This document shows, piece after piece, positions 56,301 to 64,000 of a stretch of 64,000 nt of DNA; the stretch's first letter is position 1, and each line of letters opens with the position of its first letter. The notes beneath the pieces were generated by a model. The model saw nothing but the letters and a program-made list of their open reading frames with translations, had not been told where the DNA came from and searched no databases. The stretch comes from Dehalococcoidia bacterium (GTDB lineage: Bacteria > Chloroflexota > Dehalococcoidia > UBA6926), in assembly GCA_963666115.2 (NCBI GenBank), contig CAXXET010000007.1, positions 96,001-160,000 of the forward strand, read 5' to 3'. Made by a program: the position numbers and the translations under genes.

Positions 56301-57443
56301 ATGAGCAAAACAGTAATGCTCCTGACGACGGTCGCCCTTCTCCTAACCGCCTGCGCCAACGGCGCCGCCCAACCAACGTCACCACCCCCCACAGCCCTGC
56401 CGCCCCCAACCCCCGCCGCCCCCAACCAGGACATGGACGTCGTAACAGTCCTCGAAAAAGACGCCATCCCCGCCATCCGCTCGCCGGAGTTCGTGGACGT
56501 TGACGCCGCCGAGTCGTGGATGAACCCCGATGAGCCGATCATCAGCGTCGAAATCGACGGCGACGCCCGCGCCTATCCAACCGCCATGCTCAGCCGCCAC
56601 GAGATTGTGAACGACACCGTGGGAGGCGCGCCGATTGCGGTGACGTGGTGACCCCTCTGCTACACGGCCATCGTGTATGGCCGAGAGGTGGACGGGCAGT
56701 TGCTGACCTTCGGCGTCTCCGGCAAGCTCATCCTCAACAACCTCGTCATGTTCGACGACCAGACGGACTCCGAGTGGAGCCAGGCATACGGCGCGGCCAT
56801 CTCCGGCCCCCTAGAGGGCGCGGAACTCGAACTGGTCGCATCGCGGCTAATGTCATGGGAGGCGTGGAAAAGCCTCTACCCGGACACCCTCGTGCTTGAC
56901 AAGCGAGGCCTCTACCGCCGAGACAACTACGACACGTACTACACGAACCCGCAGGCCGGAATCCTGGGCCGGAGCATCAATGACCGGAGGCTCGGACTAA
57001 AAGACCTCGTCCTCGGCATAGAAATCGGCGAGGCACAACGCGCCTACCCCTACGACGCCCTGGCCGAAACGCCGATAGTGAACGACACTCTCGCCAACCA
57101 CGAAATCGTAGTAATCCACGAACCGGACGCAGGCTTCGCCGCAGCCTACAGCCGCCGCCTAAACGATGCCGCCCACGCAATAGCCCAAGGCCCCTTCGGC
57201 ATGAACGCCCCAAAAAACCTGACCTTTGAGCAGGCCAACGCGGCTCAGTTGGGGAACGACCCAACAGTCTCCAGCCCCGTAATGCGAGACCGCGAAACAG
57301 CCTCAATCTGGAGCGCCTACACAGGCAAAGCAATCTCCGGCCCGCTCGAAGGCGCAACCCTAACCCAAATCCCGACCACCCCATCATTCTGGTTCGCCTG
57401 GGCAGACCTATTCCCGGATACGGGGGTGTGGGGAGAGGAGTAG
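56301..57443 (+). CDS. DUF3179-family selenoprotein (lipoprotein), Sec at TGA 56649-56651
   Basis: Lipobox LTAC, DAIPAI..P, ARAYP...HEIVND, then VTW-TGA-PLCYTA continuing in frame into FGVSGKL...D.QT.S.WSQ and FWFAW. Confidence 0.9.
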
Positions 57444-59505: not shown

Positions 59506-60348
59506 ATGACCGCCACGCAAGTTCAGGAAAAGCACGTCACCGTCAACGGGGTGAAGCTCCGCTATTTCGACTACGGCAATGAGGGCGCGATGCCCATGGT
59601 CTGCCTGCACGGCCACACCGGACAGGCACATATTTGGGACGAGTTCGCGGAGGCCATGGCGCCAAACTTCCACGTCGTCGCCGTCGATCAGCGCGGACAC
59701 GGCGGCAGCGAGCACGCCTCCACCGGCTACGCGCGTGACCGCTTCGTCGAGGATTTGGATGAGCTGGTCGTCGCGCTGGGCTTTAATCGATTCGTACTGG
59801 TCGGCCTCTCCATGGGCGGCTGGCACTCCCTGCTCTACACGGGCGAGAAGCATCCCGAGAAGGTGGAGCGCATCGTCATCGTTGACATCGGGCCGGAGCC
59901 CAGCGAGCGGTCAAAGGTGGAGTGGGGCGACCGCCCCCCGACGCCAATGTCCTTCGCCAGCGTCGATGAGGCCTTCGCGTGGGCCCGCGAGGGCAACCCC
60001 TGGGCGGCCGGGGCGCGGCTCCGCAAGGACATCGAGGATAAGGTGAAGCAGACGCCGGACGGGTCATGGACGTGGAAGGCGGACGCCGCCCTGTTCAACG
60101 TCCCCCTCGCGGACGGCACGGATGAGACCCTGATCAACCGCTACTGGAAGGCGATTGAGACCATTGAGCAGCCGATCCTGGAGGTTCGCGGGCTGGAAAG
60201 CCCCCTGATCGACGACCTGATCAAGGACAAAATGCTCGCCGCAGCCAAAAACATGTCCTGGGTGGACGTCCCAAACGCAGGCCACGTCGTCACGGTGGAC
60301 AAGCCACAGGAGTTCATCGCCGCCACCCGAGAGTTTTTGGGGGTCTAG
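59506..60348 (+). CDS. Alpha/beta hydrolase
   Basis: LHG, DQRGHG.S, GLSMGG, VDIGP and AGHVV; upstream TGcTACAAT and AGGAGG. Confidence 0.9.
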   Translation: MTATQVQEKHVTVNGVKLRYFDYGNEGAMPMVCLHGHTGQAHIWDEFAEAMAPNFHVVAVDQRGHGGSEHASTGYARDRFVEDLDELVVALGFNRFVLVGLSMGGWHSLLYTGEKHPEKVERIVIVDIGPEPSERSKVEWGDRPPTPMSFASVDEAFAWAREGNPWAAGARLRKDIEDKVKQTPDGSWTWKADAALFNVPLADGTDETLINRYWKAIETIEQPILEVRGLESPLIDDLIKDKMLAAAKNMSWVDVPNAGHVVTVDKPQEFIAATREFLGV

Positions 60349-61617
60349 CTACCCACCCGCCACCCCATCCAGCGCCTCCCGCCACTCGCGGGTAGACAGG
60401 CCGTTAGGGTATCCCTTCCGGTACGTGATGACACCGTTGCCGTTGATGACGACTGCAGACGCGTGAGTATTGATGCCGTATTCATTCGATAAATGCACAT
60501 CGAACGCCGCCATGCCCCAGGGATACCCCTGTCTCTCGGCGTATCGGCGGATACTGCTCTCATCATCGATCGGACTGGCAGCGATGGCGAGAACGGCAAC
60601 CCGGTCCGAGTAATCTCCGTATAGATCCTTGAGGCTCTGCAAATCAGAGCGACATACCGGTCAAGTGCTTGAGAAGAAGTACAAAACGACGGGCTGGTTG
60701 GCCTGCTTGAAGTCCGTCAGCGAGCGGGTTACGCCATTCGTCGTCGTCACCGTGAAGTCCGGCGCGGACTGCCCCACACGGTTGCCAACGGGCGGAGCGG
60801 GTTGGGCGGGCGGCTGGGTGGGCGGGATGGGCACAGGCGTGTCCGTAGGCTGCGTTGACGGCGTTGTGCCTGACAGCGTGGGAGGCGTCGGTTCGGCGGT
60901 TCCGGGCAGCAACGCAGGCGGAGCGACGGTTGGTGGCGTGAGCGTCGGCGGCGCTTGGGGGGTCCCCGTCACGGTCGCATTGGTATCCGGCTGCGAGGCG
61001 CTTGTATCGACCTGCGTGCCTGTCAACGGGAGCGTCGTCACCGCGTCAAGCGCCTCCCGCCACTGCTCAGCATTGTGGCTTCTCCCCGCCGCCCGGAACG
61101 TGATGACGCCATCGCCGTCGATGATGACCTTGGAGGGCTGGCGGATGACGCCAAAGGCCGTCTGCACGTCTCCGTGATAAATTGCCATTTCCCAGGGGTA
61201 TCCCTGTTGTGCGGCATATCTGTCTATCGTTTCCGCAGTCTCGTCCGGGTCGACGTCAACCGCGATGAACGCCACCTCATCCTGGTAGTCGGGGTAAACA
61301 CTCTTGGCAGTCTGCAACTCAGACCGGCATGACGGTCACCAGCTTGCGAAGAAATAGACGACGACAGGCTGGTTCGCCTGCTTGAAATCCGTCAACGACC
61401 GCGTCACGCCGGATGTGGTCGTCACGGAGAAGTCCGGCGCGAGATCGCCGACACGGTTGCCGACCTCCGGCGCGGCCTCCGCCGGCGTCCCGTTTTCCGG
61501 TGAGGTTGGTGCCGTCTCCTCCGTGCCCGTGCCGCACGCGGCGGCCAGCATCATCAGCGCCGCAACCAGCAGCGCGCCAACCAGGACGCCCGCCCACATG
61601 TGCAGTCGTATGCTCAC
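60349..61617 (-). CDS. Tandem two-domain TlpA/AhpC-TSA redoxin lipoprotein with two selenocysteines
   Basis: Three in-frame ORFs (61336-61617, 60661-61317, 60349-60642) are joined by TGA codons, giving FASW-U-PSC and FSST-U-PVC; lipobox AAAC and duplicated APDF motifs. Confidence 0.88.
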
Positions 61618-61636
61618 AAGTCGCCTTCCTCCGCGT

Positions 61637-63247
61637 TCATGGCGGCGAGCCAGCCAATCCCCACCCGCCCCCGCCCGGCGTCTCTATCGTAAGCCTGTCC
61701 CCCGCCCCAACGGTAGCCGTCACCGTCGCCGGTAGTTCTTCATCATCGTCTCCACCGATTCTGCGCAGCGTATTCCGGCCCGGCGCGCCGTCCGCCCCTC
61801 CCGCCAAACCCCACGCCCCGCGCGAACGCCTCTCCGTCAGCAGGGATACCGTCGCGTCGCCCAAAAACTCCACCGTCCGCACAAGGCCGTCGCCGCCCCG
61901 GAACCGCCCCGCCCCGCCGGAGCCGCGCCGCACCCCGTACTCCAGCACGCGGAATGGGTACTGGTACTCCAGCGCCTCGATTGGCGTATTGAGCGTATTC
62001 GTCATATGGCTGTGGATGGCCGACTCGCCGGGCCCGTCGGGGCTCGCGCCGACTCCCCCCGCGAGCGTCTCGTAATATGCGAAGGGCTGGCCGGTGCGCG
62101 GGTCCGTGCCGCCGATGGTCACGTTGTTCATCGTCCCCTGGCTTGCGGCCGGGATTTTGTCGGGCAGAACGTCTGCGAGCGCCCCAAACACGACGTCAAC
62201 TATCCGCTGCGATGTCTCCACGTTGCCCGCCGCGACGGCGCGCGGCGGGCGCGGATTGACCAGCGATCCCTCCGGCGTGATGACCTCCACGGACGCGAAC
62301 GAGCCCTGGTTCGCCGGAGCGCGCGGCCCGGCCAGGCAGCGCACGCAATACTGAACCGACGAGACGGTAACGGCACGCACCGCGTTGTTATTGCTCAGCG
62401 GCTGTTCCGGCGACGTGCCCGTGAAATCCACACTGAGCGAACCGTCGCCGTCGCTCGTGATGGTCACGGCGATGCGGGGACGCTCCCCGCCGCTCGTGGG
62501 TGGCTCCATATCGTCCGAGAACGCATACTCGCCCGACGGTATCTCGCGCAGCGCGGCCCGCACCAAACGCTCGGCGTACTCGATCAGCGCGTCGCCGTGC
62601 TCTGTCACCGCCTGCCAGCCATACCGCCTGATCAGCGACTCGTAGCGCCCCTCGCCAATGCGGTTGGCGGCGATCTGCGCCGCAAGGTCGCCCCGCCGCT
62701 CCTCCGGGGTCCGCACGTTCCGCATGAACAACTCAACGGCCTCGTCGTTGAGCACGCCTGCTTTGGCAAGCCTGATCGGCGGGATGATGAACCCCTCCTG
62801 GTAGATGGACGTTGACGCGGGCATCGAACCGGGGGCCATGCCCCCCACGTCCGCGTGGTGCGCCCGCGACGCCACGAAGCCCGCCAACTCCCCAGCATCC
62901 CCGTCATCAATGCCATCGGGAATGAACACAGGCGAGATCAAAGTCAAATCCGGCAGGTGCGTGCCGCCGAGATACGGATCGTTTAGCGCGATCAGATCGC
63001 CCGGCTCAAAAATGTCGAACCGCTCGATAGCGGCCTGCACCGACGCCGGCATCGCGCCCAGGTGGACGGGGATATGCTCCGCCTGCGCTAGGATGCGCCC
63101 CGTGGAATCAAAGACGGCGCAGGAAAAATCACGCCGCTCCTTGATGTTCGGCGACCACGCCGTCCGCCCCAGCGCCGCCCCCATCTCCTCCGCGATGGCC
63201 GCGAATAACCGCCGAAACACCTCCAGCGAGATGGCGTCAACGCTCAT
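61637..63247 (-). CDS. Hydantoinase B/5-oxoprolinase family subunit
   Basis: SPNIKERRDFSC, HIPVHLG, NDPYLGGTHLPD, HHADVGG, TNTLNTPIE and TPGGGGWG. Confidence 0.95.
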   Translation of the reverse strand: MSVDAISLEVFRRLFAAIAEEMGAALGRTAWSPNIKERRDFSCAVFDSTGRILAQAEHIPVHLGAMPASVQAAIERFDIFEPGDLIALNDPYLGGTHLPDLTLISPVFIPDGIDDGDAGELAGFVASRAHHADVGGMAPGSMPASTSIYQEGFIIPPIRLAKAGVLNDEAVELFMRNVRTPEERRGDLAAQIAANRIGEGRYESLIRRYGWQAVTEHGDALIEYAERLVRAALREIPSGEYAFSDDMEPPTSGGERPRIAVTITSDGDGSLSVDFTGTSPEQPLSNNNAVRAVTVSSVQYCVRCLAGPRAPANQGSFASVEVITPEGSLVNPRPPRAVAAGNVETSQRIVDVVFGALADVLPDKIPAASQGTMNNVTIGGTDPRTGQPFAYYETLAGGVGASPDGPGESAIHSHMTNTLNTPIEALEYQYPFRVLEYGVRRGSGGAGRFRGGDGLVRTVEFLGDATVSLLTERRSRGAWGLAGGADGAPGRNTLRRIGGDDDEELPATVTATVGAGDRLTIETPGGGGWGLAGSPP

Positions 63248-64000
63248 GCGGACGACCTTTCGAGAATGAGGTTCAGGCGCTCATCCACACGGCCAACCCA
63301 CCCCGGCGGCACATACGTGGTGCAGTCTGTCTGCGTAAGCACGGCAGGGCCGGCGATGCGGTTGCCCGCCATCAGCGCGTCGCGGTCATAGAGCGGCGCG
63401 GCGGTCTCTCCCGTGTCCGTCGTCAGCGTCGTCTCGCCAAGTCGTGCATGGCTCGCGTCCGGCCCGCCCTCCCCGTTCGCAACAGCGAACTCAGGGCGGC
63501 GCGCGGGTATGGTCGCGCGCAGCCGCAGCGTGACGACCTCCGTCGGCCAATCGGGATGGCTATGGTCGAAACGACGCTGGTGGGCGGCGTGAAAGCGTTC
63601 CTCCAGCGTCAGGCCGTCACCGCCGCCTGCCGGGATGGACAACTCGTACCCCTGCCCCTTGTACCGCACGTCCGCGAACGCCGCAAAGCGCGAGCTGGAA
63701 GCGTGTAGGCCGTCTGCGCCCATATCGAGCCGCGCGTCCGTTTCCATCCGCCCCAGCATCCGCCACACATTCGTCACCGTCGCGTACTCCATGTCCCACA
63801 TAACGGTGCGCGAGAAATCGCGGGTCACATCGATGTTCAGCATCCCCCACGCCGACAGCGCGCCCGGCAGGCGCGGTATCAGCACGCTGCGAATGCCAAG
63901 CCCGTCCGCGAGTTCGCAAGCGTGGAGCGGCCCCGCCCCGCCGAACGCCACCAGGGTGAAATCGCGCGGGTCGTGTCCCCGCTCCAGCGAGACTACCCGC
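63244..64000 (-). CDS. Hydantoinase A/oxoprolinase family subunit, C-terminal part (5' end outside window)
   Basis: G.DPRDF.LVAFGGAGPLHA, LSAWG, RY.GQ..EL and GPA. Confidence 0.92.
   Translation of the reverse strand, partial: RVVSLERGHDPRDFTLVAFGGAGPLHACELADGLGIRSVLIPRLPGALSAWGMLNIDVTRDFSRTVMWDMEYATVTNVWRMLGRMETDARLDMGADGLHASSSRFAAFADVRYKGQGYELSIPAGGGDGLTLEERFHAAHQRRFDHSHPDWPTEVVTLRLRATIPARRPEFAVANGEGGPDASHARLGETTLTTDTGETAAPLYDRDALMAGNRIAGPAVLTQTDCTTYVPPGWVGRVDERLNLILERSSA

Follow-up and report, generated by a model that had tools for sequence, protein, structure and literature searches.

How many genes, and how many proteins, are represented by three short open reading frames (ORFs) that follow one another in a single frame and are separated by nothing but TGA codons? 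The question is raised by a stretch of 64,000 nucleotides, hereafter the window, from the genome of a Dehalococcoidia bacterium of the phylum Chloroflexota (assembly GCA_963666115.2, contig CAXXET010000007.1, positions 96,001 to 160,000). On its minus strand, from 61617 to 60349, a frame of 422 codons is interrupted only by TGA at 61338-61336 and at 60663-60661, and each of these codons opens a UxxC motif, FFASW-U-PSC and FFSST-U-PVC, where U94 and U319 stand for selenocysteine (Sec). Coordinates are positions in the window unless a contig of the same genome (C3, C4, or C6) is named. We propose that the frame is a single functional gene, produced by a recent in-frame fusion, for an exported redoxin with twin UxxC motifs that would work in thiol/selenol-disulfide exchange, and we give this reading as a whole a probability of roughly 0.86. 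A first-pass annotation of the window had joined the three ORFs into one frame split by two TGAs at UxxC motifs, and had seen in it an exported protein with two Sec residues, formed by two redoxin domains and a Pro/Thr linker. The 422-codon frame and the Pfam matches bear out the frame and the domain layout, while the exported protein with two Sec residues finds support in the Sec machinery, in the retention of TGA among relatives, in the Cys of more distant homologs, and in the hairpins that follow the two codons.

Conservation of the UGA Codons in One Reading Frame

Under the standard bacterial code (table 11) the frame appears as three fragments, 61336..61617, 60661..61317, and 60349..60642, and the public protein set holds from this contig only the middle fragment of 218 residues (P0010), the read-through gene having been split by gene callers. 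A six-frame protein search of 40 relatives gives a different picture. Each of the 21 other genomes of the genus has redoxin homologs, and a TGA lies within the match in every case; when the genome under study is added to form a set of 22 species, TGA occupies the active-site codon at 43 of 43 sites (22 in domain 1 and 21 in domain 2), with coding sequence conserved on both sides. The two domains of our protein are 55% identical over 150 residues.

Whether homologs carry Cys at the two U positions, a check proposed with the first-pass annotation, can be answered positively. Cys is invariant at the U column in 13 more distant homologs of Cys type; a lipoprotein that is 52% identical (P0029) has FFASWCPVC; and other Chloroflexota show either WUTxC (G528 and G717) or WCTTC (G745). 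Single-domain Sec forms occur in other families of Dehalococcoidia (G106, G194, and G249). Judged from these alignments, the exchange of Sec with Cys at the active site is the classic signature of a selenoprotein. Contigs from public sequencing runs (X1, X2, and X3) cover the gene patchily, and retention of TGA can be read in them only for the first codon, in record 20 of X3, where TGA is indeed kept and two differences lie at 61330 and 61366.

A third redoxin paralog, more distant and interrupted by a single in-frame TGA, is present in many relatives within the genus (e.g., G011:C51:59404-59766, G018:C1:935713-936084, and G014:C1:845555-846064). The genome under study yields one other match with the redoxin query, a paralog of Cys type at C6:114709-115101.

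Capacity for Selenocysteine Insertion

The genome comprises 2.07 Mb in nine contigs of a metagenome-type assembly, estimated as 100% complete and 0.3% contaminated, with a GC content of 63%. The complete machinery that the first-pass annotation had named for checking is encoded in it. The tRNA for Sec (C6:144464-144561) is found by ARAGORN as well as by Rfam model RF01852 (68 bits, above cut-off), and selA (539 bits), selB (330 bits; C3:59828-61669), and selD (387 bits) all score above their curated cut-offs. The selD gene (locus L018, C6:420976-421899, plus strand) contains an in-frame TGA of its own, in HCAG-U-AAKL. The organism is able to make selenoproteins.

Hairpins Downstream of the UGA Codons

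Each TGA is followed by a hairpin in which the spacing from UGA to loop is exactly 16 nt, and between the two copies one pair differs as G-U to G-C and another as G-C to C-G. The hairpins of equal geometry and the pair swaps reported at first pass are thus real, and their covariation holds genus-wide. The 43 sites align without gaps, and RNAalifold independently predicts for them a helix of 6 bp (columns 23-28 with 34-39) around a 5-nt loop. In a covariation test of a supplied 7-pair helix (36 distinct rows, 252 cells, 500 shuffles), 90.9% of the cells are paired, and shifting the 3' partner by one to three columns lowers the figure to 29.8-48.0%. Changes on both sides of a pair affect 25 cells against a shuffled mean of 8.2, and the covariation score is 0.318 against 0.142, neither value being attained in any of the 500 shuffles; the rows belong to close relatives and paralogs, which inflates tests of this kind. 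The pair of columns 27 and 35 couples the third, silent position of a Ser codon with the second base of a Gln or Arg codon; it reads UA at 25 of the 43 sites and CG at the other 18, is never broken, and sets apart even such sister taxa as G013 and G012. Among orthologs of domain 2 there are compensatory variants such as GUUCCG/CGGAAC and GCUCCG/CGGAGC.

In the available text of PMC13188914, the general model of the bacterial selenocysteine insertion sequence (bSECIS) is defined by a loop of 3-9 nt, a stem of 4-16 bp, a G among the first two bases of the loop, a spacing of 16-37 nt, and a minimum free energy (MFE) of -7.5 kcal/mol or lower. Hairpin 1 satisfies every constraint, at the minimum spacing of 16 nt, and hairpin 2 satisfies those on loop length, stem, spacing, and energy; across the genus, 40 of the 43 hairpins reach the energy limit. 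The loop of domain 1 is AGUUG in 22 of 22 genomes, and that of domain 2 is AUUUG in 14, AGUUG in 6, and AGUUA in 1 of 21. A relative from another family (G106) has GUGCCG-AGUUU-CGGCAU at the equivalent position. Most other Sec sites of our genome have stems of 7-8 bp starting from +13 to +20 with GGN loops, and the selD hairpin is of a different and more classical kind, UUGCGCAG-GUC-CUGCGCAA, whose start is 29 nt from the U of the UGA codon. Because the other Sec genes, with stems that start at a similar distance, differ in the loop, and because the position travels with the gene family into other families of Dehalococcoidia, the redoxin hairpin is best described as a compact form specific to this family and not to the lineage. 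The short, lineage-specific SECIS shape suggested at first pass consequently finds no support: Apart from the missing loop G of the second copy, the hairpins fit the general model.

A covariance model built from the 43 sites (R1) retrieved in our genome only the two redoxin sites, the next matches having E values of 0.16-0.46, and is therefore uninformative about the SECIS type of the genome at large. None of the Rfam SECIS families reached its gathering threshold over the window, and a permissive Rfam scan of 60300-61700 returned chance matches only (E 1.6-9.6).

A Recent Fusion of Two Selenoprotein Genes

How did a protein with two Sec residues in two domains come about? Among the 21 congeneric species compared, 20 have two adjacent lipoprotein genes in the same region, and one (G016) has only gene 1 at the locus. 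Gene 1 of the relatives has about 195 codons, with the lipobox LAVAC, the motif FFASWUPSC, and a stop; gene 2 has about 300 codons, with its own start, a signal with a lipobox of the GAVAC type, a long Pro/Thr tether, and the redoxin domain. The two genes lie in different frames in 18 relatives, and in two others (G008 and G009) they share the frame with real stops between them. The junction in our gene falls after codon T195 (61035-61033), where four aligned relatives have a TAG stop, a short spacer, an ATG, and the signal peptide of gene 2. The DNA alignment with these relatives shows that all of these elements, including the hydrophobic signal region, are missing from our genome, whose linker is shorter than theirs by about 260 nt.

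In the phylogenetic tree of single domains, which retained all 49 rows and was rooted at midpoint for drawing only, the sequences of the genus form one clade (support 98/93), as do the sequences of domain 1 (96/84), and the two domains of our genome (G000) are each nested among relatives with split genes (95/91 and 100/96). From this nesting it follows that the fusion is a derived and recent condition. The notion of duplicated redoxin domains advanced at first pass therefore survives in part: The domains are homologous, but they were brought together by recent gene fusion and not by an old internal duplication. Among 401 sampled genomes of Dehalococcoidia, ours included, only ours has a single match that extends across both domains with two TGAs, and a search with the full-length protein returned, at lengths near that of the query, six matches, none of which is a two-domain relative.

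Fold, Membrane Anchoring, and Proposed Mechanism

Pfam recognizes the protein as AhpC-TSA (132.1 bits against a cut-off of 26, E 1.4e-38) and as Redoxin (94.6 against 26.6), with two stretches in each case. The AlphaFold2 model, which is of domain 1 only and based on an alignment of 15 sequences, has a mean predicted local distance difference test score of 87.1 and shows a thioredoxin fold, with a helix (residues 95-110) that begins directly after U94 and an N-terminal helix spanning residues 3-26. The top Foldseek matches of domain 1 are the ResA structures 4nmu and 1su9, with target-normalized template modeling scores of 0.85-0.90, and the best matches further include other TlpA-like proteins, CcmG, and lipoprotein thioredoxins of pneumococci; a sequence search of PDB agrees.

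The N-terminus, with R4, a hydrophobic stretch, and LAAAC ending in Cys28, resembles the lipobox pattern, with Leu at position -4 rather than -3. Both lgt (147.7 bits) and lspA (116.7 bits) score above their cut-offs in the genome, hence lipid anchoring is possible, and we take the 422-residue protein to be extracytoplasmic and tethered to the membrane, probably by lipid.

On these grounds we envisage the following sequence of events. Each in-frame UGA would be decoded as Sec during translation, the hairpin of 6-7 bp inside the coding sequence, with its loop 16 nt away, presumably recruiting SelB with Sec-tRNA(Sec) as in the established bacterial mechanism. The gene itself arose recently, in the lineage of this species, when two adjacent paralogous selenoprotein genes were fused in frame with loss of everything from the stop of gene 1 to the signal peptide of gene 2, spacer and start codon included, so that domain 2 may now be exported as the tail of domain 1, by way of what used to be its own Pro/Thr tether. 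Outside the cytoplasmic membrane, Sec might attack a disulfide, a sulfenate, or a peroxide of the substrate, after which the resolving Cys would form a selenenylsulfide; exported proteins could thereby be protected or repaired. The most likely function would be thiol/selenol-disulfide exchange at the outer face of the membrane.

Weighing the Proposal against Its Alternatives

Several results weigh against this reading and have to be set beside the evidence above. As to the hairpins, the folds of 60-nt windows are unexceptional when compared with shuffled sequences (z -1.48 and -0.64); support for the hairpins comes from cross-genome comparison and not from folding energy. Within that comparison, beyond the relatedness of the rows, the pairs with a double change number 3 versus 2.1 expected, a value reached by 100 of 500 shuffles, and for further pair types the count is 7 versus 6.8, with 305 of 500 shuffles at least as high; only 15 of the 36 distinct rows have the outer C-G pair of hairpin 1, which is open in the other 21; the AU at the first two loop positions of hairpin 2 breaks the rule on G; and 3 of the 43 hairpins lie above the MFE limit. 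As to function, no NCBIfam model reaches its cut-off, the scores being 95.2 against 170 for ResA (NF002854), 90.2 against 123.15 for DsbE (TIGR00385), and 66.6 against 359 for the DsbE equivalog; because of these scores, we consider the protein a member of the broad TlpA-like family and not an ortholog of a characterized enzyme. The neighboring genes (hydantoinase A and B, an alpha/beta hydrolase, a B12-binding helix-turn-helix protein, and an NYN protein) provide no functional hint, and among the public runs listed there is no RNA run that matches the redoxin stretch. Finally, DsbD_TM (PF02683), DsbD_2 (PF13386), DsbB (PF02600), and VKOR (PF07884) have no match in the genome, and PF02683 is above cut-off in none of the 22 genomes of the genus, several of which are single contigs.

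The last point gives some room to an explanation that is compatible with the same gene model, namely a donor-independent, selenium-based thiol peroxidase or oxidase outside the membrane, in which peroxide or oxygen oxidizes the selenol and thiols of the substrate or small ambient thiols recycle it. In its favor, the genome, although complete for marker genes, has no match to the donor families just named, the strongest Pfam match is to the peroxiredoxin-type family AhpC/TSA, and Sec reacts faster with peroxides and resists over-oxidation. Yet the W-U-x-x-C motif and the ResA-like fold are features of disulfide exchangers, and peroxiredoxins have a Thr three residues before the peroxidatic Cys, a motif that is not found here; moreover, a donor may exist that belongs to an undescribed family or is too divergent for the Pfam models. 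We therefore regard the donor-independent enzyme as unlikely, even if it is the alternative that fares best. Slightly less probable still is a broader conjecture, by which the Sec-redoxins of the genus would be self-contained, selenium-based thiol peroxidases or oxidases of the extracytoplasmic space that run on peroxide and ambient thiols in place of electrons from the cytoplasm, made two-headed by fusion in this species, and SelB would accept loops outside the consensus, such as AUUUG.

Could the protein instead serve cytochrome c maturation, in the manner of CcmG or ResA, keeping the heme-binding cysteines of apocytochromes reduced? The genome has a Ccm system I despite the lack of CcdA/DsbD matches, with Cytochrom_C_asm domains at C4:15231-15839 (118 bits) and C4:20595-21080 (113 bits), and the best partial NCBIfam matches are to ResA and DsbE, the best structures those of ResA and CcmG. 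Against such a role, the redoxin gene lies beside hydantoinase genes on a contig other than that of the ccm genes, it scores well under the ResA and DsbE cut-offs, the CcdA/DsbD partner is missing here and DsbD_TM throughout the genus, and the Cys-type paralog on contig C6 could serve instead; we also know of no CcmG with two paralogs on long Pro/Thr tethers. This role thus seems improbable.

A different objection concerns the fusion itself, which might be an error of assembly or consensus that has joined two genes separate in reality. The fusion is missing from all 21 congeners, the assembly is of metagenome type in nine contigs, and paralogs with repetitive Pro/Thr linkers can mislead assemblers. 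However, the junction region (60854-61193) is bridged colinearly and without indels by contigs of three runs: X1 covers 60854-61069 with 0 differences, record 9 of X2 covers 60861-61193 with 7 differences in 333 nt, and record 16 of X3 covers 60902-61110 with 18 differences in 209 nt. X1 is possibly the source sample of the genome, so that, to the detriment of our case, only X2 and X3, which come from two other studies, count as independent. Furthermore, the junction joins unique sequence at the C-terminal end of domain 1 to the linker and does not fall between the homologous domains. An artefact is accordingly very unlikely.

Even less credible is that the domains resemble deiodinases and dehalogenate halogenated aromatics outside the cell instead of exchanging thiols and disulfides. 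The Pfam model T4_deiodinase gives 63.8 bits against a cut-off of 27, its best stretch being residues 281-345 around FFSSTUPVC; there is a weak NCBIfam match to "deiodinase family protein"; related sequence is present in runs of sponge metagenomes; and deiodinase-like ("Dio-like") selenoproteins of marine bacteria are reported in the available text of PMC2398784. However, the PF00837 match covers only positions 75-140 of a profile of 237, that is, the core common to thioredoxin folds, the same cross-match appears in Cys-type homologs (P0003 and P0015), the NCBIfam model deiodinase_rel scores 57.9 against a cut-off of 250, and the matches to AhpC-TSA, ResA, and DsbE extend over the full length and are far stronger.

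Least credible of all is that the TGAs are real stops of a decayed gene or of three small ORFs, as the three fragments of standard gene calling would have it, given that TGA stands at the catalytic codon of all 43 sites in 22 species with the protein conserved on both sides, that the Sec machinery is complete and a covarying hairpin lies 3' of each TGA, that at least ten other genes of the genome have a Pfam domain spanning a TGA, and that the variants near the TGAs in other samples are silent or conservative in the read-through frame.

Organization of the Locus

The features of the fused selenoprotein gene are collected in table 1. The upstream hydantoinase B gene (Hydantoinase_B, 684 bits) ends with a TGA stop at 61639-61637, which is closely followed by the Shine-Dalgarno-like sequence GGAGGAAGG, and the start position of the redoxin gene is kept as GTG or TTG in the four aligned relatives.

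Table 1. Positions in the window of the read-through redoxin gene and of its parts
Feature	Position	Strand	Description
Read-through gene with two Sec-UGA codons	60349..61617	-	GTG start, 422 codons, TAG stop at 60351-60349; open if TGA is read as U
Shine-Dalgarno-like sequence GGAGGAAGG	61624..61632	-	6 nt 5' of the GTG start; putative, read from sequence
N-terminal signal/anchor, residues 1-28	61534..61617	-	R4, hydrophobic helix, lipobox-like LAAAC with Cys28
Redoxin domain 1, residues 56-174	61096..61452	-	Best stretch of Pfam AhpC-TSA; thioredoxin fold of TlpA/ResA type
Sec codon 1 (UGA, U94), W-U-P-S-C	61336..61338	-	TGA in 22/22 genomes of the genus
SECIS hairpin 1	61308..61326	-	CGGUCUG-AGUUG-CAGACUG; 7 bp with the outer C-G pair counted, 5-nt loop; MFE -7.9 kcal/mol
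Pro/Thr-rich linker, residues 196-269	60811..61032	-	About 75 residues; fusion junction at its 5' end
Redoxin domain 2, residues 270-419	60361..60810	-	Pfam; 55% identical to domain 1
Sec codon 2 (UGA, U319), T-U-P-V-C	60661..60663	-	TGA in all 21 genomes having the second domain
SECIS hairpin 2	60634..60650	-	GCUCUG-AUUUG-CAGAGC; 6 bp, 5-nt loop; MFE -8.8 kcal/mol

Directly upstream and on the same strand lie the hydantoinase/oxoprolinase A and B genes (61637-63951, minus strand). Hydantoinase B is also directly 5' of gene 1 in those loci of relatives that we inspected, a conserved neighborhood without an obvious link to the redoxin.

Other Selenocysteine Genes of the Genome

Further Sec genes were sought with a codon-usage filter followed by Pfam analysis of 20 candidates. 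In its strict form the filter gave 15 candidates and missed known positives; in its relaxed form it gave 71, recovering both redoxin sites and missing selD, whose UGA is near the N-terminus, and the DsbA site. Ten further genes have a single Pfam domain that either extends across an in-frame TGA or, in the GrdB-like case, ends just before it: DsbA, DUF3179, an AhpC-TSA protein, the GrdB-like protein, DUF427, MGMT, rhodanese, GrdA, a CoA-transferase, and a thiolase. Six of the 20 (L071, L073, L074, L077, L078, and L081) were discarded as two adjacent genes or because the domain does not cross the TGA, and four (L068, L075, L079, and L080) had no Pfam match. A scan of the whole genome for a TGA with open frame and hairpin produced 1855 candidates and is uninformative at 63% GC.

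One of these genes lies in the window itself, 3 kb from the redoxin gene. It is a DUF3179 selenoprotein (56301-57443, plus strand; TGA at 56649-56651) with an exported look, its lipobox-like N-terminus reading LLLTAC; the domain (305.8 bits) spans residues 56-377 of the read-through frame with the TGA at residue 120, in the motif TW-U-PLC, and a hairpin of 7 bp, CGGCCAU-CGUGU-AUGGCCG, starts from +17. DUF3179 is a known selenoprotein family (UxxC/T) in the available text of PMC13188914, which lists MGMT too. In-frame TGAs that look catalytic are found in MGMT/Ogt (VP-U-HRVV; C4:249601, minus strand), DUF427 (ST-U-PFKG; C4:325067, minus strand), the C-terminal domain of thiolase (FYD-U-YT; C6:337437, plus strand), and CoA-transferase (DST-U-PVT; C4:504246, plus strand). 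The terms DUF427, thiolase, and CoA-transferase are absent from the same available text, and none of the papers listed by a term search of open-access literature contained DUF427.

The remaining Sec sites are those of DsbA (YI-U-PWC; C3:9354, minus strand), the AhpC-TSA protein (FTGG-U-ERE; C6:445152, plus strand), rhodanese (Y-U-QGGIR; C4:384268, plus strand), GrdA (CFV-U-TAAG; C3:27800, plus strand), the GrdB-like protein (TT-U-PICN; C4:417645, plus strand), and a probable GrdB recognized by its motif only (LTST-U-GTSTRSG; C3:23697, minus strand). Given the GrdA and GrdB-like sites, the genome seems to encode a reductase of the glycine/betaine type. Two Dehalococcoidia, with 49 and 46 selenoprotein genes, are placed among the ten richest bacteria in the available text of a 2026 database paper on BSepDB (PMC13326102), and a rich selenoproteome is therefore to be expected here.

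Significance of the Fused Gene

What is new at this locus is the architecture, which derives from the recent fusion of two selenoprotein genes; the UxxC family is already known, and hence we are not dealing with a new kind of system. The gene offers a clean and well-controlled example of how standard annotation can break a selenoprotein into three pieces, and since at least ten more such genes are present in the genome, the protein catalogues of this group of uncultured bacteria are systematically truncated at active sites. It also shows a fusion of selenoprotein genes caught early, while 20 sister species still have the two genes unfused, and thus one route to bacterial proteins with multiple Sec residues. 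The 14 species that combine a working-looking Sec codon with an AUUUG loop devoid of the consensus G constitute a natural test set for what SelB needs, and the presence of exported Sec-redoxins in a small genome without recognizable CcdA/DsbD, DsbB, or VKOR makes the recycling of extracytoplasmic redoxins amenable to testing.

Comparison with Known Systems

The nearest catalogued relative is the "Prx-like thiol:disulfide oxidoreductase" (PF00578; UxxC or UxxU; one or two Sec), which appears as a selenoprotein family in the available text of PMC13188914, together with a "thiol:disulfide interchange protein" and an entry for cd02966; UxxC selenoproteins of thioredoxin fold are also tabulated in the available part of PMC1794560. 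Like members of the Prx-like family, our protein has the PF00578 thioredoxin fold, a UxxC motif that opens with Sec, and a SECIS immediately downstream of the UGA. The two-Sec form of that family, however, has UxxU within one motif, whereas here each of two domains has one Sec and its own SECIS. The NCBIfam models for ResA-like selenoproteins match weakly (WAxxUGC with 34 bits against 300 and TUGYCR with 32 against 100). A search by term of open-access text, with supplementary tables and the BSepDB website outside its reach, brought up no account of a protein whose two Sec residues lie in separate domains united by fusion.

Proteins of the ResA/DsbE type work with CcdA/DsbD as membrane electron donor. 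ResA, CcmG (DsbE), and TlpA provide the best matches in sequence and structure (4nmu, 1su9, and 2b1k) and resemble our protein in having a motif of the W-C-x-x-C type, a membrane tether, and an extracytoplasmic location; they differ in that here Sec replaces the nucleophilic Cys, the scores fall under the ResA and DsbE cut-offs, the gene stands outside the cytochrome-maturation cluster, and the donor of those systems (PF02683 and PF13386) has no match.

The pneumococcal proteins Etrx1 and Etrx2 are two paralogs in one organism that receive electrons from CcdA proteins and support a methionine sulfoxide reductase at the cell surface. They have a TlpA-like fold on a surface lipoprotein anchor (PDB 4hqs, 4hqz, and 2yp6), as the protein described here probably has, but are Cys proteins encoded by separate genes.

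Closest in layout are proteins in which two redoxin domains are already joined. One of 325 residues (P0030), 35% identical to ours, has the same order of lipobox signal, redoxin, linker, and redoxin, with WCPTC and WCPVC as motifs and thus no Sec. Another (P0180) combines a domain 1 of Cys type with a Pro/Thr linker and a second domain, and has at most one Sec. The gene calls of P0180 and of two further proteins (P0032 and P0179) all break off at FFAATW, immediately short of the codon at which the active-site residue would be expected. Judging from these truncated sequences, the three proteins probably represent an independent fused form with one Sec.

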